Shown: positions 1 through 17,716 of the stretch, piece after piece
How the letters are laid out: every line of letters starts with the position of its first letter
How positions within the stretch are numbered: the first letter of the stretch is position 1
Source: a virus
Taxonomy: Duplodnaviria > Caudoviricetes
Virus record (IMG/VR): IMGVR_UViG_3300010429_001449
Length of the DNA stretch: 64,000 nt
Strand: one strand, 5' to 3'
Program-made: the position numbers and the translations under genes
Notes under the pieces: generated by a model
What the model was told of the DNA's origin: nothing
Seen by the model: only the letters and a program-made list of their open reading frames with translations
Databases searched by the model: none

Positions 1-23
1 AATCTTGCAATGGTGAATTGTGC

Positions 24-440
24 GGGGGGACGGGGACGGCGGGGACGATCCGGACAGGGGACGCCGTCATCGGGGACGGGGACAGCGACGTCGGCGGGGA
101 CGCCGGACGGGGACGGGGGGACGCCGTCAAGCGGGGGACGTTCCGGACGGGGGACGGGGACGCCGGACAGGGGGGACGGGGACGGGGACGCGAATAGGTA
201 ACGCTCCGTGCAGGGGGACGCCGTCGGCGGGGGACGGCGGGGACGGTCCGGACGGGGGGATCAACGGCGGGGACAATCGGCGGGGACGGGGACGCCGGAC
301 GGGGACACCGTCGGCGGGGACGGGGGGACAATCTGCAGGGGGACGCGGAGCAGTACGGACGGAGACGACGCCGTCGGGGGACGCGGGGGACGCCTGGCGA
401 AGACCGATTGATAATAGGAGCGGGGAGCGGGGGTGGGGAC
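24..440 (+). repeat. G-rich degenerate repeat block dominated by GGGGAC(G)
   Basis: Dozens of GGGGAC copies, all on the + strand; ORFs here translate to low-complexity G/R/T/D sequence. Confidence 0.85.
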
Positions 441-1049
441 TGGGCGGCGGGGGGCACGGGGGAGCGGGGCGGGGCGCGGGAGCGGGGAGCGGGGTCGACG
501 GCGCGGAGCGGGCGGAGCGGGCGACGCCAGCGACGGGGGCGTCAATGGTGAGCGCGTACTGCGGGGGCGCGGGTTACGGGCGGCGGGGCGGCTGCAGCGC
601 GGGGGTGACGCCAGCGGCGCGGGCGACGGGGCGGTCATCGGCGCGGCGCGGCCAGGCGGGGGGAGCGGGGCGACGGCGCGGAGCGCGAGCGCCGGGCGCG
701 GGGCGTATCACTGGGGCGGGCCTTGCGGGGTACGGGGCGGCGCTGGGCCTTGCGGCGGCACGTCAGGGGCGGCAATGGTGAGCGAGAGCGAGCAGGGCGG
801 GGCGTGAGCGGGCAACAACGGGGCGCGGCGGGGGCGACAGCGGCGCGGGCCGACGGGGGAGCGCGGCGGGTCGACGGCGAGACTGTTCCGCACGGCGGCG
901 CGGCGGAGCCGGGAACCGGAGTTCGTCCGCCGGGGCGCGGAGCCGGGGCCAGCGACGGGGCGACGCCGATTGATAATCGTGCGGGGCTGGGCGGGGGCGG
1001 GGATCGACGAGGGTCGTCGACCGACGGCGAGGACGTGCCGGAGTCGGCG

Positions 1050-1660
1050 CGGTCAGGGGAGCCTGCCGTTTGATAATCGTCGCCTCCGGTGGGGGCGTCT
1101 GCGCCGTGCGGGGCGGTCACGGCGCGGCGGGGTGCGGGGTCAGGGGTCGACGGTGCGGTGCGGGGGCGGTGCTGGGCAATGGTCAGGGGTCGACGGTGCG
1201 GCGGGTCAGGGTCAGGGGCGGCGGACTGGGCGCGGGTCAGGCTACACGGGGCGCGGCGGGGGTCAGGGGCGCGTACGCGGTCAGGCGGGGCAATAAGTCA
1301 GGGGTCAGGCGATACGCGGCGCGGCGGGGCGCGTACGCGGTCAGGCGGGGCAGTACGGGGCGGGTCAGGGAGCGGAGCGGGTCAGGGGTCAGGCGGACGA
1401 CGGGGTCGTCGGGGCGGGGGTCACGGGGCAAGAGCGAATAGGTAACGGGTCGACGCGGCGCGGGGTCAGGCGATACGCGGCGGCGGGGGTCAGGCGGTCA
1501 GGCGTGGTCACGCGGGGTCAGGGGGTCACGGGGTCACGGCGCGGGGCGGGGCGGCGGTCACGGGGTCACGGGGTCACGACCAGGGGCGGGGCGGCGCGGT
1601 CAGGGACGCGGGGCAATGGTCAACGGTTGACGGGGCGGTCAGGCGCGACGCGGTCACGTA
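1050..1660 (+). repeat. G-rich degenerate repeat block dominated by GGTCA(G/C)G
   Basis: Many copies of GGGTCAGG/GGGTCACG/CGGTCAGG on the + strand only; the same block type recurs at about 2540-2985. Confidence 0.8.
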
Positions 1661-1804
1661 AAAAAAAAGTTACGCGGCGCATAAAAAAACTTTCCGGCGC
1701 GGCGCGGGGCAATGGTCTACTTGTGCGCGAAAGTGCCGTTTTGCTGCATTATACAACGTAGAAAAGATTTCGCGCAAATAGTCCAGATTAGTGTAAAAAG
1801 ATAC

Positions 1805-1833
1805 TTGACATAGGGCAGAAAAGCGTATATACT
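1805..1833 (+). promoter_or_regulatory. Canonical sigma70-type promoter (17-nt spacer) of first sigma gene
   Basis: TTGACA 1805-1810, 17 nt, TATACT 1828-1833; RBS GGGAGA upstream of GTG 1885. Confidence 0.75.
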
Positions 1834-1884
1834 TACTTGTGTTGTGACGGTCAGACAGTCAAACACTTTTCAGGGAGAAACAAA

Positions 1885-2475
1885 GTGAAGAACGAAACAG
1901 TCAGGGAAGCGCAGAACGGGTCACGGACGGCGGTCGATGCGATAGTGGCGCAGTACGCGGATATGGCAAGCAATGCGGCGTACGGCGGTTTTGGGGCGGC
2001 GCGGTACGAAGACAAGCGCCAAGCGGCAATGGTCGGAATTCTGGAAGCTATCCAGACTTTCGACGCGGCGCGGGGCGCGGATTTTGGGACGCATGTCTAC
2101 TGGGCAATCAAGGGCGCGATCACGGTAGAATGCCGGGCGTACGCGGATAATATGCGCGACATGGTCGCTCGGGATGAAGACGGAGACGTCGCAACGGTCA
2201 CGGAAGTTAGCGCCGATCTCAATATGCTTTCACCGGACGCGGAAGCGGAAGCGAGAGAGACAAGCGCCGAAAATACAGTGAAGCTGCAGAACGCAATCGA
2301 CGCTATCAGGACGTTGAAAGATAGGGACGCGGAAGCGGTCACGCTCTATCTGGGTCTTGACTGCGGTCGGGCGCGGTCTTTCGCGGAAGTCGGGTCGATC
2401 ATGGGATTGACTCGGGAACGGGTCAGGCAGATTGTAGGACGCGGTCTGGAACAAATCAGGCAAGCTGCAGCGTGA
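1885..2475 (+). CDS. RNA polymerase sigma-70 family factor (sigma A of this window)
   Basis: Region 2-like QAAMVGILEAIQTFD..GADFGTHVYWAIKG; region 4 HTH SFAEVGSIMGLTRERVRQI; start placed at GTG after RBS. Confidence 0.9.
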   Translation: MKNETVREAQNGSRTAVDAIVAQYADMASNAAYGGFGAARYEDKRQAAMVGILEAIQTFDAARGADFGTHVYWAIKGAITVECRAYADNMRDMVARDEDGDVATVTEVSADLNMLSPDAEAEARETSAENTVKLQNAIDAIRTLKDRDAEAVTLYLGLDCGRARSFAEVGSIMGLTRERVRQIVGRGLEQIRQAAA

Positions 2476-2539
2476 CGCGGGGCAATGGTGAAGCGGCGCA
2501 AAAACGGGATGCTACGGAGCATCCCGTTTTTATGTACGG

Positions 2540-2985
2540 GTCAGGCGCGGAGCGGGTCACGGTCACGGCGGCGCGGGGCAATGGTCAGGCGGTCACGCGG
2601 GGCGGCGGTCAGGGGGTCAGGCAATCACGGAAGCGGGGCGGCGGCGGTCAGGCAATACGGGGCGCGGGGCGGGGTCAGGGGCAAACAAGCGGGGCGGGGC
2701 AATGGTTCAGGGTCAGGCGGCGCGGAACGGGTCACGGCGGGGCGCGTACGCGGTCAGGCGGTCAGGGTCAGGCGCGGGGCGGAACGGGGGGTCAGGGTCA
2801 GGCGGTCACGGCGGAACGGAAGCGGGGCGCGGTCAGTCAGGCGCGGCGGGGTCACGGAACGGACGGCGGCGGGGTCAGGCGCGGGGGTCAGGGAGACGGA
2901 GTCGAGCGGGTCACGCGGCGGGGCGGCGAGGGGCGGTCAGCCGAGCGAGAAGCGATTGATAATCGCCAGGAGGGGCCAGGTCAGC
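2540..2985 (+). repeat. Second GGTCA-rich, G-skewed repeat block
   Basis: Repeated GGTCAGG/GGTCACG and GCGGAACGG; no credible coding signal. Confidence 0.75.
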
Positions 2986-3376
2986 GGGGCGAGAGACGCC
3001 AGGACGCGGCGCGGGGGCGTTCGGGTCGGAACCAGGACGGGGGCCAGGACGGGATCAGCCGGAGGCATAATGCGATTGATAATCGTCACGCCGGACGGGG
3101 GCCGGGGCGGGTTCCAGGGGGCAGACTAGGTCGGCGGCAGAACGGGGCATACCGGCAGGGGCAATCCTAACGGACGGGGGCAAGCGGGGGCGGCAGAACG
3201 GCGGCGGGGCAAGTGGGGCGGGGTCAGGTGGCAGAACGGCAGGGGGCAATGGTACGTGGCGGGGCGGGGCATTGCAGGGCGGCGGGGGGCAGAATGCAGA
3301 ACGGGGCGCGGGCCGGGCGCGGGGGCGCAGTACAGGCCGTTGTCGACCGCCTGCAATGGTAGCCGATTAAAACAAC

Positions 3377-3404
3377 AAAGCCCCGTCCGCAGACAGGGCT
3401 TTGT
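3377..3404 (-). terminator. Intrinsic terminator
   Basis: AAAGCCC...GGGCTTT hairpin just downstream of minus-strand gene ending 3427. Confidence 0.65.
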
Positions 3405-3426
3405 TACTCCGCGCAGTTGCCAGCGG

Positions 3427-3795
3427 CTATTCCTCTTCGCGTTGCGCGGCGCATTCTTCGCAAGCGGCTTCAGCCGCTTCAACGCAATCGCCGAAACAAC
3501 CCAGGCGGAATTCGTTGTTTTCCGTATCGTAGACAATGGTCGTCTGGTACGTATCGCCGACGTTCAGCACAACCGCAACACAATCAAGCCAGTAGGAATC
3601 GACGTGACTGTGTTCGTGACGTACCGCGTCAGTCCCGTAGCAATGGGTGAGCGTAGCGATCTCGTTCATCACGGTATCCGGGCCGTTATGGCAACCCTTA
3701 ACCGCCTTGAGCATTGCCAGAACCTTATCCGCCTCTTCACTTGTCAGTTGAAGGGCCGTCATCAGTTCCGCCTTATCGATGCTTACCTTAGCCAC
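3427..3795 (-). CDS. Hypothetical phage protein
   Basis: GTG after GGGAGA RBS and own promoter cassette; LNVGDTYQTTIVYD motif. Confidence 0.8.
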   Translation of the reverse strand: MAKVSIDKAELMTALQLTSEEADKVLAMLKAVKGCHNGPDTVMNEIATLTHCYGTDAVRHEHSHVDSYWLDCVAVVLNVGDTYQTTIVYDTENNEFRLGCFGDCVEAAEAACEECAAQREEE

Positions 3796-4032
3796 TTTGC
3801 AATCTCCCTGAAAAGTAATGGTTGACTGTCCAGCACTATCCTTAATATAACAGAACATTAGGCTATGTCAAGAGACTTTCCAGAAATATTTTTACGCAAT
3901 AACAAGCGGCGCGGAACGGGACAGGTTAGACAACGGTAGGGCGGGGCGCGGAACAAGCGGCGGCGGGGCGGGGCTATAGCCTGGCGCGGCAAGACAACAG
4001 ACAGGTCCGTAGCGGGAGACGACAGACGTTGC

Positions 4033-4137
4033 GCGGAGCGGTAGCGGAGCGGTAGCGGAGCGGTAGCGGAGCGGTAGCGGAGCGGTAGCGGAGCGGTAGC
4101 GGAGCGGTAGCGGAGCGGTAGCGGAGCGGTAGCGGAG
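4033..4137 (+). repeat. Perfect tandem repeat (GCGGAGCGGTA) x9.5
   Basis: Nine identical 11-mers 4033-4131 plus a partial unit. Confidence 0.97.
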
Positions 4138-4446
4138 AACCGGACGCGGAACGGAGTCCGGCGGGGCGCGGGGACGCGGACGCCACGCCGATTGATAATC
4201 CCGTCGGATACGCCAGGAGGAGCCAGGAGGAGCTAGGCCAGGGAAGAGCCAGGAGGCAGGATTGATAATCGTCAGCCCTCTGGCGCGGTGCGGACGCGGC
4301 GGCCAGGGGGTCAAGCGTCGGCGGAATCGGCGGTCGGCGGGGCCGGGGCCGGGCTGTACGGGGTCGGGGGTAGGGTCGGGGCGTCCGTACAAAAAGAACC
4401 CCCGGCGGGGTTAGGGCCGGGGGTTTGTGGCCGTGCGAGTCAATGG

Positions 4447-4758
4447 TCAGGCCGTGACGCCAAACAACGTATCGACCAGCGTATCCGTTGCGGCGGACAG
4501 TGCGATGACGGCGGATTGCGCGTGACGCGCAATCCAGCGGCGGGCCGCGTCTTCACTCTCGAATTGCTTTTCAGCGGAGATTACGCGGCGGACGCGGCCA
4601 CGGTCAAAGTCGGCGGAATAACCGTAGCGTTGCGCCGTGATTGTGCGGTCATAGTTCAAGCGGAGTTCCCCGATAGAAACATCACCAGCGAAGCAATCCC
4701 GCGAATCACCAAGCCTAACAAGGGGTCTGTTGATCGACCACGAAAACGATACTGACAT
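4447..4758 (-). CDS. Hypothetical protein
   Basis: ATG with GAGGAG RBS; terminator-like hairpin at 4391-4428. Confidence 0.75.
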   Translation of the reverse strand: MSVSFSWSINRPLVRLGDSRDCFAGDVSIGELRLNYDRTITAQRYGYSADFDRGRVRRVISAEKQFESEDAARRWIARHAQSAVIALSAATDTLVDTLFGVTA

Positions 4759-4809
4759 GGTAAGCTCCTCGAAAAGAAACGGGGACCGGTCTCCCAGTCC
4801 CCTAGATGG

Positions 4810-5097
4810 TTAGCTAAGGCCACTGGCCACTTCAATGGCACGGCGGCCTTGTTCCTCAATGGCCTCGTCCAGCGGGTCATAGAGACTCCGCAGATAGGCG
4901 CGGGCCGCGTCCGGGTCTTCCCGCTCTAACAGACGGACGCGGCGCATAAGATCGTTGCGCCGTGACAGTGCGACGCCGACGTCGGCGTCTTCGGCCACAA
5001 TAGCCTGCAGCAGGGCGTTGTCGCGTCCACAGACAACGTCGTAACCGATTTCATGATCCAAGCGGTTAAGCTCATCGTAAAGGTCGAAAAGTTCCAC
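4810..5097 (-). CDS. Hypothetical protein (acidic, helical)
   Basis: GTG after cassette RBS TTTTTGGGAGA. Confidence 0.8.
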   Translation of the reverse strand: MELFDLYDELNRLDHEIGYDVVCGRDNALLQAIVAEDADVGVALSRRNDLMRRVRLLEREDPDAARAYLRSLYDPLDEAIEEQGRRAIEVASGLS

Positions 5098-5682
5098 GGT
5101 TATCTCCCAAAAAGGTTGTCTGTCCACTACACTTAATATAACAGCAATCAAGCCAATGTCAAGAGAGTTTCCGAGATTATTTCAGATATTTTTACGCAAT
5201 GGTTGATAGGCCGTTTCTCAGACTGGTCTCCGCGTGATAGTCGGTGTGTTGCGTTCCGCACTAACAGACCGCGCAGACGCGGTTGTCGACCGGAATCCGG
5301 TAGCCGCGTCAATAGAGATACAAGCGGTCATTACAAATCCGGTAGACGGCGGGGGAAGTCTTTTCGGGGTCGGCGCGGCCTGGGTGCGGCGGCGCGGCGG
5401 CCCGCTTCGACGTCGACGTCTATTGAAAATCGCGATCCCCAGCAGGGAGGGGGACGAGCAACGGGCTTGGACTCCGTCGCAGACTCAGTCAACAGCGGGG
5501 GCAGATTGAAAATCGCCACACCCCGCCAGGCAAGCGGACGAGCGGGGCGGCGCACTAGGGCGCAAGGGCGGGATACATCTAGGCGGGGCCGGGGTTAGGG
5601 TTCAAGCATTGCAAGGGACGGATAAACGGCCAATGTTGCGCGGGACGATATGTCCCGCGCAACAATGGTTGACGCGCAACGG

Positions 5683-5907
5683 CTACAGAACGAACGGCTG
5701 CAGCCGCGCACGGCGGACAATCCACGTCCTGACATATTGCGCGGGAAGGGCCGCGCCGGGGGTATGCTCGTCCTGATAGGCGGATAACGGTATCCATGTA
5801 TCATCCCGGCTATCGGCGGAAAATGCCAGCTTGATTGCCTTATCGCTGACTTCCAGTACTTCCGCGTATGCGCGTACCCGCGCCCAATCCTGAGTGATGG
5901 TAGTCAT
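5683..5907 (-). CDS. Hypothetical small protein
   Basis: ATG after GCCGGAG RBS of second-class leader; SDKAI..WIPLS pattern. Confidence 0.75.
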   Translation of the reverse strand: MTTITQDWARVRAYAEVLEVSDKAIKLAFSADSRDDTWIPLSAYQDEHTPGAALPAQYVRTWIVRRARLQPFVL

Positions 5908-5913
5908 AGTTGA

Positions 5914-5980
5914 CTCCGGCGGGGGGTTAATTTGTCCCGCTCTATAAGACGATACGGACGGCGGAAAAGAATCTGACAAG
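5914..5980 (-). promoter_or_regulatory. Second-class promoter/leader, copy 1
   Basis: CTTGTCAGATT-N8-CCGTCCGTAT..TATAGAG..CGGGA..TTAACCCCCCGCCGGAG; matches 7245-7313. Confidence 0.7.
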
Positions 5981-6120
5981 CGGCACGGAATTAAAATCCC
6001 CGTCGAGAACCGATAGGGGGCGCGTACAGACAACGAAGCTATAGCATACGCGGCGGAACATCAACGCGGCGGCGGACGCAATGCGGCGCACTGTACGCCG
6101 CGCAATGGTCGAGTTAAAAC

Positions 6121-6152
6121 AAAAAAGCCCTATCCAGCGGATAGGGCTTTTT
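6121..6152. terminator. Bidirectional intrinsic terminator
   Basis: AAAAAAGCCCTATCC-AGC-GGATAGGGCTTTTT. Confidence 0.85.
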
Positions 6153-6163
6153 GTATTCCGCCG

Positions 6164-6532
6164 TTATGGTTCGCGGGGGTCGACCGCTTCCATAACAAGT
6201 TCCTTGCCCAAGCTGACATAGTAGAGAACCGCCGTAGCTTCCGCGCCGTCAATCCACGCATAGTTACGCGGACGATACGTTACGGCGCGGCGGTTCAATG
6301 CCTTGCTGATAAGGCACAGAAGCAATCCCTTGCCATCATCCCGGAACGTAATGGTGCAGGGGATATGCCGCAGATAGAAACGGGGTCCGCGTCCGCGGTC
6401 CGCTTCCGTTGAAACGTCCAGCTTTTCCGCGTCCGCATGCGCTTCAAGCGCAGTTTCAACAGCGGCCACGACCTCGTCAATGGTCATGCTAGACGTTACG
6501 TTGACTTCGATGTTTTCCGTTGCAATCGTCAT
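6164..6532 (-). CDS. Hypothetical protein
   Basis: ATG after cassette RBS; terminator downstream. Confidence 0.8.
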   Translation of the reverse strand: MTIATENIEVNVTSSMTIDEVVAAVETALEAHADAEKLDVSTEADRGRGPRFYLRHIPCTITFRDDGKGLLLCLISKALNRRAVTYRPRNYAWIDGAEATAVLYYVSLGKELVMEAVDPREP

Positions 6533-6855
6533 TCTGACTTCTCCCGAAAAGAGGAATGTTGTCCGCGTCACTATCCTTAATATAACAGCACAGCGGCCTA
6601 TGTCAAGAGATTTTCCAGAAATATTTTTACGCAAAGACAAGCGGCGGCGGGACGGGGTCGGGACGGGAACGGACGGCGGGTATGCAGTTTGCGCGAAGGG
6701 CGGGACGGTTGCCTAGACAACGGCGGGGCGGCGGAGACTATCCCCCGGCGGAGCAACCGCAAGACGCAGTCGCGCCGCGACGCCGCCGGGGGTCGACCGC
6801 CTGGCGGGAGCCGATTGATAATCGCGCCCCACCTGGAGGGATCAGCCCACTCTGC

Positions 6856-6915
6856 GCAAAATATTATGCTTAAAAGTGTGTTAAACTTCGCACTGTTTTA
6901 AGCATAATATTTTGC
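6856..6915. repeat. 60-bp AT-rich inverted repeat element, copy 1
   Basis: GCAAAATATTATGCTTAAAA-N20-TTTTAAGCATAATATTTTGC, perfect 20-bp arms; second copy at 30575-30634. Confidence 0.92.
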
Positions 6916-6986
6916 TTAGCGACGAGGCGGGGGCTTGGAAATGTGCGGTCGGGGGCCGGGTCGTCTGCGCCAGGGCGGGGTCTGGC

Positions 6987-7238
6987 TTATTTGCGCCGTC
7001 GTTTCTTGTCGGCGGCGCATCGCTGGCAGTAATAATAACCGTCCGGGCCATACCAGACCATGTCGGGAGTTAAGTCCGGTTCTCCGCAATGGTCACAACT
7101 GAGACGTTGCGAAGCGCAACATTGCTCAACGCAACGCTCCGCTTGCCAGAACGTATCATACCGCGTTCCGCAATAGGAACACGTACAGACGCGCCCGTCA
7201 ACCGTTATCCTTCCGTCCTGAGTAACATAAGTCTTCAT
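6987..7238 (-). CDS. Small Cys-rich (zinc-finger-like) protein
   Basis: CSYC, CxxxC, CDHC, CQRC motifs; RBS GCCGGAG. Confidence 0.75.
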   Translation of the reverse strand: MKTYVTQDGRITVDGRVCTCSYCGTRYDTFWQAERCVEQCCASQRLSCDHCGEPDLTPDMVWYGPDGYYYCQRCAADKKRRRK

Positions 7239-7244
7239 CCGAAT

Positions 7245-7313
7245 CTCCGGCGGGGGTTAAGTTTTCCCGCGTCTCTATAGACCTATACGGACGGGCGCTA
7301 CAAATCTGACAAG
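7245..7313 (-). promoter_or_regulatory. Second-class promoter/leader, copy 2
   Basis: Shares all conserved blocks with 5914-5980. Confidence 0.7.
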
Positions 7314-7416
7314 AGAGTCACAGAATCTTTTTCGGGCCGCGCCGGGCGCAATGGTACACAAAAAAAAGCCCGCAACCCCTTGCGGGGTCTGCAGGCTTGT
7401 TTTGTTCGCTGTACGG

Positions 7417-7707
7417 CTACAGTTCCACCAACAGACAACCCTTGCCCGCTTGGGCGGGTAATGGTTCAACCGCCGCCCACAGTGCGCGGGCCGCACCGGG
7501 GTTGCGGGAGTCTGTTCCCGACCAGAACGTCACGACTTCCCGACGGTCATCATTGTAAATGGCGACTTCACCGTCCAGTTCCGGGCCGTTGCCTCTGACA
7601 GCAACCGTCGCCTTGCGAAACGCGGCTGCAGCGTCCACTTTCTCCGGGTGTTCCGTGCGCGAGACTACCGCGCCGAAACGGTCTTTTGTTTCAACTGAGT
7701 ACATCAT
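7417..7707 (-). CDS. Hypothetical protein
   Basis: ATG after AAGGGAGA; follows the 7715-7978 gene; terminator at about 7359-7404. Confidence 0.75.
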   Translation of the reverse strand: MMYSVETKDRFGAVVSRTEHPEKVDAAAAFRKATVAVRGNGPELDGEVAIYNDDRREVVTFWSGTDSRNPGAARALWAAVEPLPAQAGKGCLLVEL

Positions 7708-7714
7708 TTCTCCC

Positions 7715-7978
7715 TTAGACAATGGTAGCAATGAAACGGTCGATCTTGCTGTTCAATGCCGCGCTTCCGCAAGCAAGACAATGGTCCTCATCTTCCCACG
7801 CTTCCGCGAGTTCCCACGCATCCGCTTCCGTGAGTTCAACAACCCACGTGCCGTCTTCCGCGTCGCTCTCTCGCATGGCTTGCGAGAGTAAGTCCGACGT
7901 GAGATACCGTCCGCCGTGCCAGAAGATAGCTTCCGCTTCGCTGGCATCAAGAGTCAGGGTGTAAGCGTACCTTGCCAC
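7715..7978 (-). CDS. Hypothetical acidic protein
   Basis: GTG after cassette RBS. Confidence 0.8.
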   Translation of the reverse strand: MARYAYTLTLDASEAEAIFWHGGRYLTSDLLSQAMRESDAEDGTWVVELTEADAWELAEAWEDEDHCLACGSAALNSKIDRFIATIV

Positions 7979-8372
7979 GTTTCGATCTCCCAAAAAGAAT
8001 CTGGAATGTCCTGCACTACTGTTAATATAACAGCGGCGCAATCAATGTCAAGAGTATTTTCTGAAATATTTTGCGAGTGTGCGGGGCTTAGCGGAAAGTG
8101 TGCGGGCCTAGCCGTAAGAGTGTGCGCCGTGCGCGAAGACGTGCGCGGGGCCGGGCCTAGCCGAGCGGCGCAGAACGGGGGCCGGTTGGAAATCGCTACC
8201 CGGTACCGGGGGCGAGACGACGAGTCGCCGCGCCAGGATAATCGAGAGGGCGCGGGTCGGATTGGAAATCACGTGCCCTACCAGGCGGGGGCGGGGCCGC
8301 GACAACTGGATTTGTAACCCTGACAACCCGATTTGTAGAGCGGGGGGAATTGCCGGAGCAATGGTACAAGAG

Positions 8373-8400
8373 AAAAGCCCCGGAGAGTATCCGGGGCTTT
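8373..8400 (-). terminator. Intrinsic terminator
   Basis: AAAAGCCCCGGA-GAGTA-TCCGGGGCTTT. Confidence 0.8.
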
Positions 8401-8417
8401 GGGGAGTTGCGCCGCGA

Positions 8418-8708
8418 CTATCCGTCATAGTCGCCGCCGCCGTCCAGTTCCTCACCGAGCGGCGTTTCCCAGTCCCTGAAATCGTCATCGTGCGCGAAAT
8501 CCTGCCGTTCCTGCTCTTCCAGGATACGGTCGCGCTCAAGTTCGGCGTCCTCTTCGTACTTTTCCTCTTCCAACCGCTCCGACGCGGCATCATACTCGCG
8601 CTGTAACCGCGCTACGCGCTCATTGGCGCGACAAAGTTCTTGCCGGAGATTGTCGGCGTCACGCGACGCCTCCTCCAGTTCCCGTGCGATTGTGTCCAGA
8701 TCGGTCAT
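8418..8708 (-). CDS. Highly acidic coiled-coil protein
   Basis: Cassette promoter/RBS; E/D-rich heptad-like sequence. Confidence 0.8.
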   Translation of the reverse strand: MTDLDTIARELEEASRDADNLRQELCRANERVARLQREYDAASERLEEEKYEEDAELERDRILEEQERQDFAHDDDFRDWETPLGEELDGGGDYDG

Positions 8709-8895
8709 TGTCCAGTCTCCCGAAAAAAGGTTTGAAGTCCAGCACTACCGTTAATATAACAGCGGGCCGCGCAATGTCAAGAGTCTTTTTCCAGAATCTT
8801 AGAGATTTCTTTTTGAGCAATGGTCAAGGGCGTACAGCCGTTAAACGACAAAGCCCCGGTTTAGGGCCGGGGCTTTGCGTAGTGCTGTCTGTAGG

Positions 8896-9267
8896 TCATC
8901 CTACAGACTTCGGGAGAATGTTGTGTAGGGCAATGGTGTTAATGACGTTCGGGCGGGCCGGATCACGGCGGACCGTGATACGGACGGGAACGACCACGGT
9001 CGCGCCGCCCGGCGCAACCGCTTGATACTGAGCAATGCGCGTCAAAGCCAGCACGATACAGTCGATGGTTGACTCGCACGGCTCGTCCAGCACGATATCC
9101 GTATGCGTCTCGCGCTGGGCGTACGTTCCGGCGCTGGCGCAATAATGCAAGGGCGTAAGGCGCTCCCGCAACCGGACGACAAAGCGGTCGACCGTATCAA
9201 CGACGGTGTTTCCCCACTTGTGCCGAATCTCCGGCGTTGCCAGAAATGCAAGGGCGGCGTCTGTCAT
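8896..9267 (-). CDS. Hypothetical protein
   Basis: ATG after TTTTGTGGAGA; terminator at 8850-8877. Confidence 0.8.
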   Translation of the reverse strand: MTDAALAFLATPEIRHKWGNTVVDTVDRFVVRLRERLTPLHYCASAGTYAQRETHTDIVLDEPCESTIDCIVLALTRIAQYQAVAPGGATVVVPVRITVRRDPARPNVINTIALHNILPKSVG

Positions 9268-9633
9268 CGTTCCGTCTCCACAAAAGAAATGAATGTCTGT
9301 CACTACTGTTATTATAACAGCACGGCGTCCAGCGTCAAGAGAGTATTTCCGAAGATTCATCCTATTTCCGCGACGCCGGGAGACGGCCTGAGTTCGGGCA
9401 GCGAGACGGCGAGACGCTGACACCCAGTTGTCAGGGCCGGGCGGGGCCGAGGGCGGCGATTGATAATCGAGGCACTGAGGGCGGGTCGGGGGCGGAAATC
9501 CGGCGGCGTTGCTCGACGAAGAGCGGGGATTGATAATCGCGTCCCTCCCCCGGCGCGGGGCCGGGGCCGTTAAATGAACCCGGCCCGTCCGGAAAGTCCG
9601 GAGCGGGCCGGGAGAATGTCGTTACGCGGGCCG

Positions 9634-9909
9634 CTATGCGGGCCGCGTGTACTTGCGGAGCGTATTTTCCGATACGTCCAGCGCCTTTGACGTTGCGCGA
9701 TAGTTGCCGTTGCAAGCGGCAAGCGCCGCCGTCATATAGGCGCGAAGTACGGCGTCGACCGTCCGTACGCTGTTCGGGCCGTCAAGCGTTGTTTCGGGCT
9801 GCAGGTCCGTTGCCTTTGCAACCGGCGCAACCGTTGCCGTTGCCGTTGCAACCGGCGCGGTTGTTTCAACCGTTATCGTCACTCCGTTAACTTCAATGGT
9901 TTGCTTCAC
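9634..9909 (-). CDS. Fis-like helix-turn-helix DNA-binding protein
   Basis: C-terminal ALAACNGNYRATSKALDVSENTLRKY matches the Fis/NtrC-type HTH pattern. Confidence 0.8.
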   Translation of the reverse strand: MKQTIEVNGVTITVETTAPVATATATVAPVAKATDLQPETTLDGPNSVRTVDAVLRAYMTAALAACNGNYRATSKALDVSENTLRKYTRPA

Positions 9910-10268
9910 GGCGTCATTCTCCCAAAAAAGGTTGTCTGTCCTGCACTACCCTTAATATAACGGCGGGCCGTTCAATGTCAAGAGTCTTTTTTGTGTTGAC
10001 TGCGAAATACTTTTGACGGGCCGTATAAGGGCCGCGACGGGCCGCTATCCGGCAATGGTCCTGATATGCTCTAGCGGGCCGTTATGGGCCGTTATGGGCC
10101 GTTGCCGGGCCGCAAGGCGCAAGGCGCAATAAACGCCGCTATCGGGCCGCGCAACGGGCCGCTAAAAAAAAAATCCCGGAATTCCCGGAAAAGAGTCTTG
10201 ACATAGGCGGAATTGCTGTTATATTAAGGGTAGTGCTGGACAGACAACCTTTTTGGGAGAATGACAGA

Positions 10269-10832
10269 ATGACAGAGAACGAAACAATCAGGGCCGCGCA
10301 AAGCGGCGACAAAGGCGCAATGGACGCGCTGGTCGAAAAGTACACTCCGCTTGCAATGAGACTGGCGCTAGGCGGATTCGGCAAGGCGTCAAAGGCGGAC
10401 AAAAAGCAAGCCGCTTTGACGGGATTGCTTGACGCGATCCATACCTTTGACGAGACAAAGGCCAATGGCGGCGCATTCGGAACGCATGCGTACTGGACAA
10501 TCAAAGGCGCTGTTACGGTCGAATGCCGCAACTACGCCAAGCCGTTAGAGAACGCCGTTACGTCGGATGACGAATTGGCGACGGAAGTCTACGCCGATCC
10601 GGACGGGATATCTCCGGCGAAAAACGCCGAACGCAACGAAGATATCGCAAGGGCCGTTGCCAGCCTGGACAAGGCGACGGAACGGGAACGGGAAGCAACG
10701 CGCTTGTTCCTCGGGCTGGACAATGAGCTTGACCAAAGGTCATTGGTTGAAGTCGCCGGGATGATGAATGTTTCCCGGCAACGCGCAAAGCAACTGGTCG
10801 ACAAGGGCCTTGCGGCGATGCGGGCCGCGTAA
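10269..10832 (+). CDS. RNA polymerase sigma-70 family factor (sigma B; paralog of 1885-2475)
   Basis: FGTHAYWTIKGAVTVECRNYA aligns with sigma A; region 4 SLVEVAGMMNVSRQRAKQL. Confidence 0.9.
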   Translation: MTENETIRAAQSGDKGAMDALVEKYTPLAMRLALGGFGKASKADKKQAALTGLLDAIHTFDETKANGGAFGTHAYWTIKGAVTVECRNYAKPLENAVTSDDELATEVYADPDGISPAKNAERNEDIARAVASLDKATEREREATRLFLGLDNELDQRSLVEVAGMMNVSRQRAKQLVDKGLAAMRAA

Positions 10833-10842
10833 CAAACAACTA

Positions 10843-10875
10843 GGGGAGACCGGACGGTCCGGTCTCCCCGCTTTT
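10843..10875 (+). terminator. Intrinsic terminator/attenuator
   Basis: GGGGAGACCGGAC-G-GTCCGGTCTCCCC then CTTTT. Confidence 0.7.
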
Positions 10876-10891
10876 CTCTTTGGGAGTAACA

Positions 10892-11566
10892 ATGGTTGAC
10901 TTCAAAGACATAATCGAATGCGATTTGGTCAAGCGGGTGATGGAAGTTGCCGCAGTCGGCAATCACTCATTACTGTTGTTCGGGCCGCACGATTACGGCA
11001 AGACTCTTTGCCTGCAGGCAATGGCGGGCCTAACCGACGTCGACAACGTCGGGCCAGTGCAGGATATGACCGCCGCAAAGCAACGGGCCTTGCGGAATAG
11101 GCTTGACCGTCACGAACGGACAATAGTTGCGGAAATCGTGCCGTGCCCTTGCGGGAACTACTGCAACGCGCATGCGGTATGCCGTTGCTCCGCAGTAGCA
11201 ATCCAGCGATACCGCGCAAAGCTAATGGACACGGTGCGGAGTTTCGACGCCGTGGTCGGGATACGACGCCCTATGCCGGAAGCAATGGCGCGGGTCCGTT
11301 GGGATACAGAGGATACGGAAACCGTCAAGGCGCGGGTTATGGCCGCGAAGGGTATCCCGACGCCGTCGGGGTTGTCTCTTGACGCCAGCGATATCGTATC
11401 AATGGCGGTGCGCCAAGCGGGAATGACGCCGAAACAAGTTGTCATTGCCAAAGCAATCGGCGAAAGCGTTGCGCGGCTTGACGGCAAGGCGACGGTGGAA
11501 GTCTTCCATATGAGCGAAGCGATCCAGTACGTGCTCGGGTTCAACAACATATGGGGAAGTCTGTAG
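10892..11566 (+). CDS. Minimal ComM/YifB (Mg-chelatase-like AAA+) protein, internally deleted
   Basis: DFKDI..KRVMEVAAVGNHSLLLFGP..GKT, PCPCG..CRCS..IQRY, C-terminal VARLDG..HMSEAIQY; lacks N-terminal Lon-like domain and Walker B segment. Confidence 0.8.
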   Translation: MVDFKDIIECDLVKRVMEVAAVGNHSLLLFGPHDYGKTLCLQAMAGLTDVDNVGPVQDMTAAKQRALRNRLDRHERTIVAEIVPCPCGNYCNAHAVCRCSAVAIQRYRAKLMDTVRSFDAVVGIRRPMPEAMARVRWDTEDTETVKARVMAAKGIPTPSGLSLDASDIVSMAVRQAGMTPKQVVIAKAIGESVARLDGKATVEVFHMSEAIQYVLGFNNIWGSL

Positions 11567-11812
11567 CTTCCCCGTTCTCCCTGGAAACCGGAGCGATCCA
11601 AGCGGTCGCTCCGGTTTTTCTTTGTACGGATTTCCACTCCCGAACCGTTGCATTTTCTGCAACAGTTCGCGGGGATTGATAATCGCGTTTCGAGTTGTTG
11701 CATTTTCCGCAACAACTGCCCGCGCCGAGAGGGTTTTTCGAGGGAATGATAATCGCGTTCCGGAACGCCCGCGCCAGGGCGGGGGCGTTTCAACCGGGGT
11801 TGTAATCGGGGG

Positions 11813-12118
11813 TTAGAACAACTGGAACGCTTCAAACAATCCGGCGTTGCCAGTCAGGACGGGGGCCGCGTCCGCGTCGGTCAAGTAGATGAAGTCATTG
11901 CCTTGCACGGCGTTAATGTCCGCGTCGGGCGTTTTGTGCCAGCGGTACTCAAGTTCGTACGGGCACGTCAGGACGCGGCGCGTTCCGTTTTCCCAGTGGG
12001 GGATTTGATACGGTTCGTTCAGTTTCCGCAGTATCAACGTATTGACTCCCTTGCGGGCCGCACGGGCCGCGCCGGGGCACAAATCCGTAACGTCAAGTGT
12101 TTCTGTATCAACGGTCAC
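11813..12118 (-). CDS. Hypothetical protein
   Basis: ORF collinear with upstream cassette genes; weak RBS. Confidence 0.55.
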   Translation of the reverse strand: MTVDTETLDVTDLCPGAARAARKGVNTLILRKLNEPYQIPHWENGTRRVLTCPYELEYRWHKTPDADINAVQGNDFIYLTDADAAPVLTGNAGLFEAFQLF

Positions 12119-12177
12119 TTGTTTGCCTTAAACGCAAGCGGGGACGGCGCGGGCCGTCCCCTAGTAATGGTTGACTG

Positions 12178-12351
12178 TCACCGTTCAAGGGCCGCTTCGC
12201 GGAGTTCCGCAACGGCGGCGTCCCGCGCCAGCACCTTAGCGTAAAAGACTTTATGCGCATCCGCAAGGGCCGCTTTCGCGGTATCAAGTTCCGCTTGCGC
12301 GGTCTTGACCTTGTCATTGGCCTTGTCCACTTTGTTAAGGGCGGGTTTCAT
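12178..12351 (-). CDS. 57-aa coiled-coil protein (not in ORF track)
   Basis: CCTTTTCTGTGGAGA RBS then ATG; MKPALNKVDKANDKVKTAQAELDTAK... Confidence 0.75.
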   Translation of the reverse strand: MKPALNKVDKANDKVKTAQAELDTAKAALADAHKVFYAKVLARDAAVAELREAALER

Positions 12352-12408
12352 GGTTCTGAGTCTCCACAGAAAAGGTTGCAGGGGCCGGTTTCCCAGCCCC
12401 CAAAGAAA

Positions 12409-12594
12409 CTAACTGAGTCCGCTTGTCTTTTCGACAGCGTCGCGGCCTTGCTGCGCAATGGCGCGATCCAGCGGGGTCAAATCCTCATCCGCATCCTCAT
12501 CCACAACGACCGGGCCGCAAATCGGCTCGACCGCGTCCTTGCAGTCCGCGTAGTAACCGCAAGCCCTGCATCCGTATGGAAGGTCATTCGTCAT
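12409..12594 (-). CDS. Small Cys-rich protein
   Basis: CRAC..C..C; cassette promoter/RBS. Confidence 0.75.
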   Translation of the reverse strand: MTNDLPYGCRACGYYADCKDAVEPICGPVVVDEDADEDLTPLDRAIAQQGRDAVEKTSGLS

Positions 12595-12700
12595 TCTCGT
12601 CTCTCCACAAAAGGTTGTTTCTGTCCGCGTCACTACTGTTATTATAACAGCGGCGCGGCCACTGTCAAGAGTTTATTTCAGGAATTCTTGACGGGTGTAC

Positions 12701-12735
12701 AAAAAGAATCCCCCCGTAGCATTACGGGGGGATTC
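12701..12735 (-). terminator. Intrinsic terminator
   Basis: GAATCCCCCCGTA-GCAT-TACGGGGGGATTC with A-tract on plus strand. Confidence 0.8.
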
Positions 12736-12748
12736 AATGGTTGTTGCG

Positions 12749-13099
12749 TCAGGCGGGGCGCTTGGCGCGGCGCGTTTCGCGGGCGTCGACTTGCCAGGCG
12801 AATTCGACCGCCCGCTCATCACGCCAGCGGAGTTGCTCCGGGGTGTAATGGGCGAAATACTCCGGATCGACGTCGCCGTCCTGCAGCGTCAGAAAACCCA
12901 GCAGCGCAAGGGCCGCGTCGGGGGAGTTCCACTTGTGCATCGGCGAAACGGCGAGACCGTCGCCGGAAAACAGAACGGCGCAACCCTTCCAGTCCAGATC
13001 ACGGACTGAGTACGCGACAAGCGTATGCCATTCGCCCGCTTTCCGCCGGGGATTACTGAGCGTCACGCTCAAACTTCCAAGCCTGTAGGTGTACGTCAT
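12749..13099 (-). CDS. Hypothetical phage/MGE protein
   Basis: Cassette promoter/RBS; LLGFLTLQDGDVDPEYFAHYTPEQL motif. Confidence 0.85.
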   Translation of the reverse strand: MTYTYRLGSLSVTLSNPRRKAGEWHTLVAYSVRDLDWKGCAVLFSGDGLAVSPMHKWNSPDAALALLGFLTLQDGDVDPEYFAHYTPEQLRWRDERAVEFAWQVDARETRRAKRPA

Positions 13100-13499
13100 T
13101 TTCGTTTCTCCACAAAAGAAATGTCTGTCACTATCTCTAATATAACAGCGTCGCGGCCAATGTCAAGAGTCTTTCCAGAATATTTTTACGGATTTGTTTC
13201 ATCCCCCGGACGGCGGGTCGCGCAAGGCTAGGCGCGAACGGGCGGCGCGGGGTGGTAGTTTCCTGGCGGTGGTCCTGGCAGTGATCCTGGCGGTCGGGCG
13301 GCGCTCGGCGGAGCGATTGAAAATGTCGGGGGGACGGCGAACGAGGCGGTTTTCCGCGTCGGGGGCGCGGAGCGAGGGAAGGATTGGAAATCGGCGTCCC
13401 CCTGCCAGGCCAGGCCGCAACTTGGGTTGTAATCGTCGGGGGTTAAAGCAAAAAGCCCCGGCTTGTTAGGGCCGGGGCTTAGTGCCAGTGGCGGGACAA

Positions 13500-13955
13500 T
13501 CAGTCGGCTTTCAGTCGCCGACAGTGGAGAATGTCAGTATCGCGCCCGTAGCGGACGCCGTGCCAGCGTTTCCCGTCGGGGCCGATGAACCACAGATCAA
13601 GGCGCTCTCTTGCAATGTTGTGCTTTCCGTGAGTCCACGTCTTGACGCGGAACATAAGCGTGCCGGGCCAGTTCCCCACGCGGGAGACGGTCTTGTCGTT
13701 GTTGTCAGTTGCTCCGCAGACTACGCGCAAGCCGTCGGGGTTTGTGGGGGTGCGAGTTCCCGCAAAGTAGTAAAGCGTCGCCTTGCCGGTCTGACGCATA
13801 TCTTCAGCGTCACGCTTGCCGCAACACTCATAACAGACTTTCGCGCCGTCGCGGGCCACGCCGTAACCCGTGCCGCAAGAATTCGCGGGGGGTTCAATGG
13901 TCTTGCCGCAGTCCGCACAAACTACGGGGGTTGTTGTTGCCGTTGTCATGGTCAT
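13500..13955 (-). CDS. Hypothetical phage protein with Cys motifs
   Basis: CADC, CYECC, GNWPG; cassette promoter/RBS; terminator at 13450-13480. Confidence 0.85.
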   Translation of the reverse strand: MTMTTATTTPVVCADCGKTIEPPANSCGTGYGVARDGAKVCYECCGKRDAEDMRQTGKATLYYFAGTRTPTNPDGLRVVCGATDNNDKTVSRVGNWPGTLMFRVKTWTHGKHNIARERLDLWFIGPDGKRWHGVRYGRDTDILHCRRLKAD

Positions 13956-14092
13956 TGTCTCCACAAAAGGTTGATTGTCCACTATCCTTATTATAACAGT
14001 GGCCGCGCCAGCGTCAAGAGTCTTTTCAGGAATATTTCCTTAAACGCAAGCGGGGATAGTCCGCAAGGGACTATCCCCGACAATGGCCGCGC

Positions 14093-14485
14093 CTAGTCCT
14101 CGTCAGGGCGCATAAGGGTTATTACGGGTTCCCCGTTGTCGCCGGGGCCGATCATCATCTTGACCGTGTAATAGGTCTTGCGCCCGTTGTGCATGATGAG
14201 ATTGTAAAGGCGGGCGCTGTCATCGCCGCCGCGCCGCGCCGCAAGACGCCCCATATACAGAACATCCCAAAGACGCCCGTCATAGTCCTGAAAAGACTTG
14301 CTGGCGGGAATGTCTTTTATGTCCGCGTGAAGGGCCGCAGTAATGGCCACAGGAACGCGAAAGCCCGCTTCGCGGGCCGTTTCGGAAACGTCAATCAGCG
14401 TTCCGTCTTCAATGGCTTGTTCCCGCGAATAGCACGAAATCACTTCCCCGAACACGTCGCGCATTGCGTCATCATTTTCCGGCAT
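14093..14485 (-). CDS. DUF6573-like protein
   Basis: YSREQAIEDGTLIDVSETAREAGFRVPVAIT..GRLWDVL..PGDNGEPVITLMRPDED; family recalled from motif. Confidence 0.75.
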   Translation of the reverse strand: MPENDDAMRDVFGEVISCYSREQAIEDGTLIDVSETAREAGFRVPVAITAALHADIKDIPASKSFQDYDGRLWDVLYMGRLAARRGGDDSARLYNLIMHNGRKTYYTVKMMIGPGDNGEPVITLMRPDED

Positions 14486-14652
14486 GGTCTTTGTCTCCAC
14501 AAAAGGTTGATTGCCTGCCACTATCTCTATTATAACAATGGCCGCGCCAATGTCAAGAGTCTTTTTTATTTTCTATTTACGCTCTTGACACGGCCCGCGT
14601 CGCTGTTATATTAAGGGTAGTGGACAATCAACCTTTTTTGGAGAATGACGCA

Positions 14653-15018
14653 ATGACCAACAAAGAAACACAACGGGAAATACTCTGCTGTATATGGTAC
14701 GGCGAACACGCCGACCTGGACAGACTCCGCGCCGAAAAGGGCGTCGACGTCAAAGCGCCGGGATGGTGGAACATCACGCCGGGCGTCGACTTTGTTCACG
14801 CCGATATCCGCATAGGCGGGCGCGTACTCAAGACAGTCGGCGTTACGTTCTCTCTTGACGGCTACGCGCCAGCGGAACGGCCCGACGTGATAGTGTGCGC
14901 GGAAGACGGCGGTCGGACGGAATTCGAGGGTATCCCGGTTATCTGCCTGACGCCGTACATCGACAAAGACCTGGCAAGCCTGACGGACTGGGTCGGGAAG
15001 CAACCGGACAGGCCCTAG
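14653..15018 (+). CDS. Hypothetical protein
   Basis: Divergent cassette promoter at 14585 and RBS. Confidence 0.8.
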   Translation: MTNKETQREILCCIWYGEHADLDRLRAEKGVDVKAPGWWNITPGVDFVHADIRIGGRVLKTVGVTFSLDGYAPAERPDVIVCAEDGGRTEFEGIPVICLTPYIDKDLASLTDWVGKQPDRP

Positions 15019-15557
15019 TCCCCGACAGGGGGCGGCCCCGCCGAAGGGGGCGCGGGGCGAGGGGGCGATTGAAAATCGGCAGGGGGTCGGGATACGAGCG
15101 GGAACAGAGCAAACGAGAGCATCTCACGGCGTCGTTTCTCGGCTTCCTCCTGATAGCGACGAAAGCGGAGCGCGGTATCATCGTCGAGCTTAAGTTCGGG
15201 CCACTCAAGTTGCGTAGGCGTCTTTTGGGGTAGCGCGGCAGCCCCGTCTACGCGCATGAACAACGACATCGACGGCGGCAGTTCGGGCGGCGGGTGCAAG
15301 TACCACTCATGCTCCAGCCAGGCCGGGGCAGCGGCGGCAAGAGGGCTGGGGCCGTAAGTCGCACGACGGCGGCGCAAAGCCAAGTCCCGGCGAACCTCAA
15401 GGACGCCGTAGGCGTAGAACGCGAACGGCAGAGCGCACGACATAAGCGCGGCCTGCCACGAGACTTGACGGCGAAACGCCGACGCCGTCACCAAAAGCAC
15501 AGGGACGATAAGCAACACGAACAAAGAGAACTCAACGAAGAGTCGCTCGGCGAACAT
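15015..15557 (-). CDS. Possible membrane protein
   Basis: Two N-terminal hydrophobic stretches; no cassette RBS, start uncertain. Confidence 0.4.
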   Translation of the reverse strand: MFAERLFVEFSLFVLLIVPVLLVTASAFRRQVSWQAALMSCALPFAFYAYGVLEVRRDLALRRRRATYGPSPLAAAAPAWLEHEWYLHPPPELPPSMSLFMRVDGAAALPQKTPTQLEWPELKLDDDTALRFRRYQEEAEKRRREMLSFALFPLVSRPPADFQSPPRPAPPSAGPPPVGD

Positions 15558-15692
15558 CCGCGCTTTCCCGCTAGACAACATTGATAATCTTGCTCCTGTC
15601 TTGTGTTCGTTTGGAAATCGGTTTCGAGAACCCCGGCGTTTTTCGGTAAGACGCCAGGGTTGTTTTTCATTCTCCGCCGGAGCGACGCGGGG

Positions 15693-16346: not shown

Positions 16347-16437
16347 GAGTCTATCTCCAAAAAAAAAGAGGTCTGTCACTACTGTTAATATAACAGCGGC
16401 CACGCCAATGTCAAGAGTCTTTTCTGTTTTTTCTGTC

Positions 16438-16585
16438 AAAAGAATAGGGGCCGGGCGGCAACCCGGCCCCAATGTCCAAGAGGACTGCCTGCAGGCTACA
16501 GGGACGGGAAACGTCCCGTTCAGAGATCAACGTACGCCGGGGAGAACCGGCCCTCTGCCCTGCCTGCGCCGTGACACTTGAGAAC
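16438..16585 (-). ncRNA. Candidate structured small RNA (about 150 nt)
   Basis: Own promoter TTGACA-N16-TATACT (16592-16619), no RBS, nested helices, ends in GGGGCCGGG/CCCGGCCCC hairpin plus TATTCTTTT. Confidence 0.6.
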
Positions 16586-17140: not shown

Positions 17141-17223
17141 TTTGTTCTCCTCAAAAGAAATTGGCCGTCCTACTGTTATTATAACAGCAAGACGGCCAGT
17201 GTCAAGGGAGAACCGAGAAAAGG

Positions 17224-17661: not shown

Positions 17662-17716
17662 GTCTCCAAAAAGGTTGACTGTCACTATCCTTAATATAAC
17701 AGCGCATTGGCCGATG

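Follow-up and report, generated by a model that had tools for sequence, protein, structure and literature searches.

Organization of the locus

We analyzed a 64,000-nucleotide stretch of phage DNA (hereafter the window), corresponding to bases 1158-65157 of a 268,817-bp IMG/VR contig, with a focus on the word CAATGG, which recurs on one strand (+) close to the left end of that contig. Judged by its sequence, the motif-rich domain is an immediate-early region with sigma-70-type promoters and spacers that are G-rich on the + strand. We found about 14 near-consensus promoters in this domain (TTGACA-16/17-TATAAT or TATATT, 12 of them with a TG extension), mostly on the - strand, and each drives a small gene or a pair of small genes, with a hairpin terminator at the end. 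Open reading frames of at least 450 amino acids occur on the - strand only, and several sigma factor genes are present in the phage. The arrays of G-rich repeats at the left end, which occupy approximately the first 3.3 kb of the window and the 1.2 kb before it, hold 11 copies of the word.

CAATGG is over-represented on one strand and fades from the contig end

A first-pass annotation, made from the letters of this DNA alone, had listed CAATGG coordinates and had claimed about 30 copies on the + strand of the first 10 kb and no CCATTG. The word was present at every coordinate listed, to within one base, and we counted 30 + strand and 0 - strand copies in window 1-10060; the first - strand copy appears at window 19473. 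The full window contains 57 CAATGG on the + strand and 10 on the - strand (67 in total), whereas dinucleotide shuffles of the window contained 26 ± 5 copies and 0 of 100 reached 67. The first 16 kb of the contig hold 43 + and 0 - copies, with approximately 4.5 expected on the + strand from Markov models of orders 1-2 trained on the same G-rich 16 kb; the corresponding figures were 31 versus 0.7 for CAATGGT and 19 versus 0.2-0.3 for GCAATGGT. An order-3 model raised the expectation to only 18 CAATGG, 7 CAATGGT, and 3 GCAATGGT; the sub-words of such a model coincide with the motif, so that it absorbs some of the excess. On the - strand of the first 16 kb, the absence of copies is not in itself significant, as 1.5-2.4 copies were expected there. 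From 17 kb to the genome end, CAATGG matched its Markov expectation on both strands.

The proposed fading away from the left end, which here is the contig end, is real, with CAATGGT dropping over successive 2-kb intervals as 4, 7, 4, 4, 6, 3, 2, 1, 0, and 0 copies. Within window 3300-17000, CAATGGT was the most over-represented 7-mer. The mean distance between copies in the dense domain was 368 bp (about one copy per 370 bp), and this spacing was not significantly regular (coefficient of variation of 0.78, with 0.96 under random placement; P = 0.06). The copies share the consensus D-CAATGG-Y, mostly GCAATGGT(C), with C nearly excluded at position -1 and Y strongly preferred at position +7. No conserved partner element was detected within 15 nt on either side of the word, leaving only seven or eight informative positions, and we ruled out that the word is part of a longer repeat unit, as its flanks carry no information. 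Single-mismatch variants had little or no strand bias, except for TAATGG (7 versus 0) and CAATGT (8 versus 1). The strict form of the word was densest toward the array end and in gene-free DNA. The two leftmost copies (window 8 and genome 954) lie within a small inverted repeat, CAAT-GGTGA-ATTG, which other copies lack. We found no description of the 8-mer form of the word in the literature that we searched.

The word is enriched inside genes of both orientations and near gene ends

To separate the DNA word from the proteins encoded over it, we used synonymous-codon shuffling, which kept every protein sequence unchanged. The 23 in-gene copies observed compare with 3.95 ± 1.8 after shuffling (maximum of 14; 0 of 1000 shuffles reached 23), and the excess thus survives both the codon shuffle and the Markov models of orders 1-2. 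Seventeen in-gene copies are antisense in - genes, where they usually encode [T/A]-I-[E/D], and six are sense copies in + genes (two sigma factors and a ComM-like gene) that encode A-M-x. Tested alone, + genes contained 6 copies versus 1.1 expected and - genes contained 15 versus 3.5 expected, with 0 of 1000 shuffles reaching the observed number in either case. As the first-pass annotation had noted, copies occur in spacers and inside genes of both orientations; we counted 23 in genes and 11 in the gene-free arrays. Polarity therefore does not merely track gene orientation, since the same absolute orientation is enriched in + and - genes, and the polarity of the word is absolute on the DNA.

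The placement of intergenic copies was also biased. Nine of 14 lie within 80 nt of the stop codon of a - gene, on either side of its terminator, compared to 3.4 expected (P of approximately 3e-4). The sigma A gene provides the one clear + case, with a copy between its stop codon and terminator whose absolute orientation is unchanged. We rejected a reading at the RNA level, such as a cleavage or binding site in early mRNAs, in which + and - genes would carry complementary words; half of the intergenic copies lying beyond terminators also opposes it.

A related phage conserves the word and turns over its sites

A homologue of the ComM-like protein (62% identity) led us to the related phage contigs L009-L012; L045 is the same as L009, so that the two represent one relative. 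L009 contains 20 + and 0 - CAATGG in 13 kb, and it has the layout of the first phage, with the same promoter cassette, paired GATTGATAATC sites, and G-rich spacers. Both gene orientations were again enriched for the word, with 8 copies versus 2.5 expected in + genes (1/1000) and 5 versus 1.7 in - genes (11/1000). One copy in the relative is in a terminator loop and another is between a hairpin and a stop codon. Codon alignments of both phages revealed only two in-gene sites in common. The rest are lineage-specific and are made by amino-acid differences, as where GCAATGGTC (A-M-V) is aligned with AALT, RAVA, or AAMR. Because in-gene sites of the relative were gained or lost via amino-acid changes, selection, as read from these alignments, acts on the DNA word itself and not on the protein. 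Conservation of the word in two lineages with turnover of its sites is, at the level of sequence comparison, the signature of such selection.

No relatives came from IMG/VR, which was searched with the sigma factor, the DNA polymerase, a DNA pattern of the promoter cassette, and the ComM-like alignment, and a metagenome scan returned only the known relative L009 and bacterial ComM genes. Weaker partial matches, L078 and L090, did not contain a polar word. No cultured phage was close (DNA polymerase identity of at most 33%), and megablast gave no match.

Contig ends, sequencing depth, and source samples

The contig starts and stops within GGGGAC arrays, whose polarity is the same at either end. 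The one-strand G-rich arrays span window 1-3350 and genome 1-1157 and 268,500-268,817, with a GC content up to 0.73 and a skew of +0.35, and by their sequence could form G-quadruplexes. In public runs, which we examined as assembled contigs, the Logan contig over genome 1-395 had a depth of 5.8 versus 36-56 in its neighbours, and assemblies break at the arrays probably because depth collapses in this segment. The contig break thus looks like a coverage drop-out in G-rich repeats and not like a proven terminus. Placement of the cluster at the first-entering end, as had been proposed, can only be deduced, since the contig end is an assembly break. We did not find a cluster of reversed polarity at the other contig end, which the first-pass annotation had suggested looking for; this result is neutral if the region is a collapsed terminal repeat.

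Depths in run X1 bear on that possibility. Contigs over genome 5,265-34,662 (window ~4,100-33,500) had depths of 55.6, 55.5, and 53.5, compared to 30, 28, and 26.9 for contigs elsewhere in the genome, which were placed via copies of a 60-nt hairpin (for example, genome ~45.5-149.8 kb). This flat two-fold step, drawn from one sample and from contig means, fits a collapsed long direct terminal repeat. The double-depth block is thus probably such a repeat of approximately 35-45 kb, the right edge of which would fall between 34.7 and 45.5 kb; two co-existing strains sharing the block are a less likely source of the step. The host-takeover module of SPO1 and the first-step-transfer region of T5 are terminal repeats that carry early genes. 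Terminal repeats reach 66 kb in the jumbo phage XacN1 (PMC5852040), and the domain described here resembles these three in its small early genes, its strong host-type promoters and terminators, and its probable long terminal repeat. The surrounding non-coding DNA is likewise repeat-rich. We know of no description of a one-strand array of a 7- to 8-mer for the early terminal repeats of XacN1, SPO1, or T5. The Pfam families Terminase_6N and Terminase_6C were not found, so that the packaging type could not be inferred.

The runs that contain the phage are digester metagenomes. RNA contigs of an activated-sludge metatranscriptome (run X4) match bodies of early genes at 99% identity or more (window 4873-5063, 6319-6516, 8536-8729, 10334-10837, 10977-11317, 12170-12550, 16701-16916, and 17200-17504). 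The phage or a near-identical one is therefore also present in activated sludge and probably transcribed there.

Recombination genes, palindrome avoidance, and host leads

A RecA-like gene is located at window 53831-54769 (-), with Pfam RecA scores of 111 and 40 bits in a 446-amino-acid frame. A profile search of the genome (E ≤ 0.001) did not detect RecT, ERF, AAA_24, PDDEXK_1 (RecB), or a UvrD-type helicase, which would leave end resection to the host. Of the 64 palindromic hexamers, 16 are wholly absent genome-wide and about 12 more have at most eight copies; absent hexamers include CGCGCG (262 expected), GCGCGC (230), CGGCCG (219), GCCGGC (193), CGATCG (116), GGATCC (87), and CCATGG (43). 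Such extreme avoidance of palindromes, a large-scale loss of restriction sites, suggests that the DNA is unmodified and exposed to host nucleases. The RecA-like gene, the lack of a detected RecB-type nuclease, and this avoidance fit a Chi-like picture.

The lone type I-C CRISPR repeat of the phage had no exact match. A degenerate pattern of the repeat matched 30 arrays in many phyla, and none of the 324 spacers from those arrays matched the phage. Taxa for NrdD in a protein atlas were scattered. The word was not in excess in five candidate genomes, and in 401 genomes of one phylum it reached a ratio to a control word of at most about 5; the first 614 kb of the best of the 401, the part covered on both strands, contained 13 + and 15 - copies. 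Counts in such arbitrary genomes say nothing about the true host.

Map of the copies and neighbouring elements

The copies and the cassettes in which they lie are given in Table 1, along with other recurring elements of the domain. Nearly every spacer contains paired near-palindromic CGATTGATAATCG sites 70-120 bp apart. These sites also have one orientation (GATAATC, 10 versus 0 in window 3300-17000) and are kept in the relative (L009 positions 90, 127, 787, 1318, and 1388 and others; 14 versus 0 in L045), and from their sequence they are probably operators of a regulator. One spacer contains a tandem repeat at which Logan contigs break. A perfect AT-rich hairpin in the domain has five diverged copies genome-wide, the other four being at genome 31,728, 66,808, 153,020, and 206,574.

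Table 1. Copies of CAATGG and other elements of the motif-rich domain (window coordinates)
Feature	Position	Strand	Details
Motif-rich immediate-early cassette domain	1-15977	+	44 CAATGG, all +; further copy at genome base 954
G-rich arrays, almost gene-free	1-3350	+	GGGGAC, GGTCAGG, and GGTCACG units; GC 0.64-0.73; GC skew +0.2 to +0.35
Ten intergenic array copies	8, 543, 773, 1177, 1614, 1710, 2483, 2579, 2700, 3247	+	
GCAATGGTC	2027-2032	+	In sigma A gene 1885-2475 (+), embedded in arrays; codes A-M-V
GCAATGGTG	2483-2488	+	8 nt past stop of + sigma gene 1885-2475, ahead of its terminator hairpin
GCAATGGTA	3354-3359	+	67 nt past stop of - gene 3427-3858, just outside its terminator
Two copies, 3534 and 3641	3534-3646	+	Antisense within - gene 3427-3858
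TCAATGGTC	4441-4446	+	Adjoins stop codon of - gene 4447-4758
Two CAATGGC	4833-4862	+	Within - gene 4810-5097; code A-I-E
GCAATGGTT	5197-5202	+	About 35 nt upstream of - promoter 5162-5135
ACAATGGTT	5663-5668	+	14 nt past stop of - gene 5683-5907
GCAATGGTC	6103-6108	+	55 nt past stop of - gene 6164-6532, beside terminator 6122-6152
In-gene copy	6478-6483	+	- gene 6164-6532; codes M-T-I-D
In-gene copy	7087-7092	+	Zinc-ribbon-like - gene 6987-7238
GCAATGGTA	7349-7354	+	62 nt past stop of - gene 7417-7704, beside terminator 7369-7386
Two copies, 7720 and 7779	7720-7784	+	- gene 7715-7978; one in its last codons
GCAATGGTA	8359-8364	+	53 nt past stop of - gene 8418-8708, beside terminator 8374-8400
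GCAATGGTC	8818-8823	+	72 nt past stop of - gene 8896-9267
In-gene copy	8931-8936	+	- gene 8896-9267
In-gene copy	9894-9899	+	- gene 9634-9909; codes Q-T-I-E
GCAATGGTC	10053-10058	+	Spacer between divergent promoters 9981 (-) and 10198 (+)
Two copies, 10318 and 10463	10318-10468	+	Within + sigma factor gene 10269-10832
Four copies, 10890, 11019, 11283, and 11400	10890-11405	+	Start of or inside + ComM-like gene 10892-11566
Copy 12456	within 12456-12740	+	In - gene 12409-12594
Copy 12735	within 12456-12740	+	8 nt past stop of - gene 12749-13099; touches hairpin 12706-12735
Copy 13895	within 13895-14541	+	In - gene 13500-13949
Copies 14081 and 14410	14081, 14410	+	14081 is 6 nt past stop of - gene 14093-14485; 14410 is inside that gene
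Copy 14536	within 13895-14541	+	Inside - promoter 14556-14529
Two CAATGGC, last copies of dense domain	15734-15977	+	- gene 15693-16346
Sparse tail, 17568, 18888, and 19929	17568-19934	+	
Paired CGATTGATAATCG sites	2953, 3072, 4188, 4260, 5433, 5507, 6813, 8186, 8260, 9458, 9528		
Tandem repeat of 11-nt unit GCGGAGCGGTA	4030-4135		About 10 copies, in spacer
Perfect AT-rich hairpin	6852-6919		About 60 nt; stem of about 25 bp

A Chi-like array as the leading reading

Together, these results call for a process that acts on DNA with a direction of its own, because the polarity is absolute, the word is short and has no partner, selection works against protein sequence, and the copies fill one domain next to a probable end with the strict form densest in gene-free DNA. 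One orientation in both + and - genes is what a translocase that reads one strand predicts and what signals defined relative to genes do not. The first-pass annotation had proposed mimicry of a host Chi-like or translocase signal. Its premise of a true polar signal at the DNA level stood, as the signal survives the Markov and codon models, has an absolute orientation, is conserved in the relative, and is confined to the early domain; the placement by stop codons and terminators is left unexplained by the proposal. Our observation is real and robust, and a Chi-like or translocase signal is its leading, unproven, explanation. We put at roughly 35% the probability that the copies are a dense Chi-like array for a helicase-nuclease entering from the genome end.

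In this model, a helicase-nuclease, most likely the RecBCD or AddAB of the host, would load at a free genome end, track inward, and read the word on one strand. About 45 co-oriented copies in 17 kb would guarantee a switch from degradation to recombination before early genes were destroyed, and the nearly gene-free G-rich arrays by the end would serve as expendable buffer DNA. If the genome has a long direct terminal repeat, the 3' tail and the phage RecA-like protein may drive repeat-by-repeat recombination, the outcome of which would be circles or concatemers. Entry from the left would read RCCATTG (- strand) and entry from the right would read DCAATGGY (+ strand), either of which is possible. 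The end-entering nuclease as reader, the identity of the word with the host Chi, and the physical end involved are all points that we infer.

Polar Chi sites have precedents in phages. In the Escherichia coli phage LLS, 20 of 23 Chi sites are in the active orientation and clustered at one end, the Pseudomonas phage MD8 contains its Chi (GCTGGCGC) in a 32 versus 0 orientation, and P1, with 50 Chi sites, depends on RecBCD and RecA for recombination between its terminal repeats (Zheng, Casjens, Davidson, Amundsen, and Smith 2025; PMC12315714). No octamer is more frequent than Chi in LLS or P1, and its sites are considered to appear and disappear over time (PMC12315714). Like these sites, the word described here is short, asymmetric, over-represented, and nearly always co-oriented. 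To our knowledge, (G)CAATGG(T) matches no known Chi.

Several observations weigh against a Chi-like array. Unlike the Chi sites of LLS, MD8, and P1, the intergenic copies here are not freely placed and are tied to gene 3' ends (the 9 of 14 noted above). Chi does not require a link to stop codons, and under this model the link has to be explained by constraint acting on the remaining spacer DNA. At one copy per 370 bp, the word is five times as dense as Chi in LLS and P1 (one per 1.9 kb), and enrichment is confined to 17 kb, whereas LLS, MD8, and P1 also carry scattered Chi. This phage has its own RecA-like gene, in contrast to Chi-rich lambdoid phages without Rec modules. In addition, the low-coverage arrays at the contig end mark a break in the assembly and not a mapped terminus, and an excess and replichore skew of the word in the host chromosome, which would define it as Chi, are at this point a prediction. 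The nearest match to the CRISPR repeat, a weak host lead, is a Comamonadaceae genome with only 56 GCAATGGT in 5 Mb.

Alternative readings

The word may instead be a phage-specific polar code, and not a copy of a host signal, that is read in the first-expressed, probably terminally repeated 17 kb by a DNA-tracking factor that the phage encodes or co-opts, and we see a substantial chance that the reader is of a kind new to science. Possible roles of such a code are stepwise genome entry, direction-blind silencing of the immediate-early domain, or marking of the ends as "self." We know of no domain-wide polar signal of this kind described in phages.

The main rival, only somewhat less probable than a Chi-like array, has a protein of the phage or host bind the word as an asymmetric site. 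The bound protein would then form a polar roadblock or assist termination at the 3' boundaries of cassettes, for example to shut off early genes. The bias of intergenic copies toward - gene stops would be natural for a cassette element, as would the copies of the relative in a terminator loop and between hairpin and stop. The cassettes form a stereotyped module of paired CGATTGATAATCG sites in one orientation, motif, terminator, gene, and promoter, and the signal does not extend beyond the domain under sigma-70-type promoters. The model for such a site is the stoperator of cluster A mycobacteriophages (L5 repressor), a 13-bp element that is asymmetric, numerous, intergenic, orientation-dependent, and found genome-wide oriented with transcription (PMC9283540). 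Here, too, many asymmetric copies are often in short intergenic spaces near stop codons. In contrast to stoperators, the orientation of the word is absolute and does not follow transcription in either phage lineage, with + genes enriched for the same absolute orientation, and copies occur inside genes (23) and in arrays (11) that have no genes to silence. The core of seven or eight informative bases is short for a duplex-binding protein compared to the ~13-bp site of a monomeric phage repressor, and a host genome would hold hundreds by chance. No repressor or other candidate protein was identified.

A signal for another tracking machine is unlikely. Candidates include an entry translocase as in the second-step transfer of T5, KOPS-like loading, a polar fork or packaging signal, and one-strand priming. 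Absolute polarity, restriction to the first-expressed domain, and a density that drops from the array end all favour such a machine. The FtsK orienting polar sequences (KOPS; GGGNAGGG) and SpoIIIE recognition sequences (SRS) are polar 8-mers that DNA translocases read chromosome-wide from origin to terminus, and they resemble the word described here in polarity and in a G-rich carrying strand. Their sequences are different, however, and they act across whole chromosomes, whereas enrichment here is limited to 17 kb of 269 kb. KOPS and SRS are not known to us in phage terminal regions, nor do we know of a precedent for a tracking signal confined to 17 kb of a phage. For priming, the recognition sites of T7 primase are 5'-TGGTC and 5'-GGGTC; the commonest extended form of the word, CAATGGTC, contains TGGTC and the arrays contain GGGTC, which is mere resemblance. 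Primases need only trinucleotides, which gives no reason for enrichment in 6% of the genome.

Strand-specific nick sites cut by a phage nicking endonuclease, as in T5, phiKMV-like phages, and phage tf, would account for a short one-strand motif and suit the T5-like layout of early genes in a probable terminal repeat. We regard them as very unlikely, since known sets are few and spread along the genome, unlike 45 sites in 17 kb. Slightly harder still to credit is a single-element promoter for a phage sigma factor, directed leftward into spacers or rightward antisense. The phage does encode several sigma factors, and T4 late promoters are, like this motif, 8 bp without a partner element. However, the orientation of the word ignores gene direction, many copies face terminators within 5-30 nt or lie antisense in genes, and RNA contigs of the metatranscriptome cover gene bodies and not spacers, a pattern in which contigs cannot prove absence.

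A functionless relic of cassette duplication or by-product of composition or codons, which the repeated cassettes with their very similar promoters might suggest, is most improbable, as the flanks of copies are not homologous, the excess persists under Markov and codon-shuffle models, in-gene sites arose independently in two lineages, and the word is at expectation elsewhere in the genome. Cassettes of similar design are known from T4-type phages, where promoter-early stem-loop (PeSL) elements, reportedly described by Arbiol et al. in 2010, are repeated units about 50 bp in length whose action depends on homology. Both systems have small early open reading frames bounded by repeated promoter and hairpin units, whereas the recurring element here is a 7- to 8-mer with unrelated flanks that is also enriched inside genes.

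Implications for phage biology

These analyses describe a very dense, domain-restricted array of a polar word in a jumbo phage. Should the array prove Chi-like, the Chi word of a host lineage not yet in culture could be read off the phage sequence alone; the host would then be expected to show an excess and a replichore skew of GCAATGGT or ACCATTGC, and k-mer skew in genome assemblies from these samples would test that prediction. It would also mean that a jumbo phage uses, at a far greater density, the recently described terminal Chi clustering of small lambdoid phages. Otherwise, with no host signal behind it, the word would represent a domain-wide directional code that selection retains although amino acids change as a result, and whatever reads it would be an obvious subject for studies of genome entry, end protection, or the shut-off of early genes. 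Two divergent lineages that have the word in common while their sites turn over are among the cleaner examples of selection on a short DNA word within genes.

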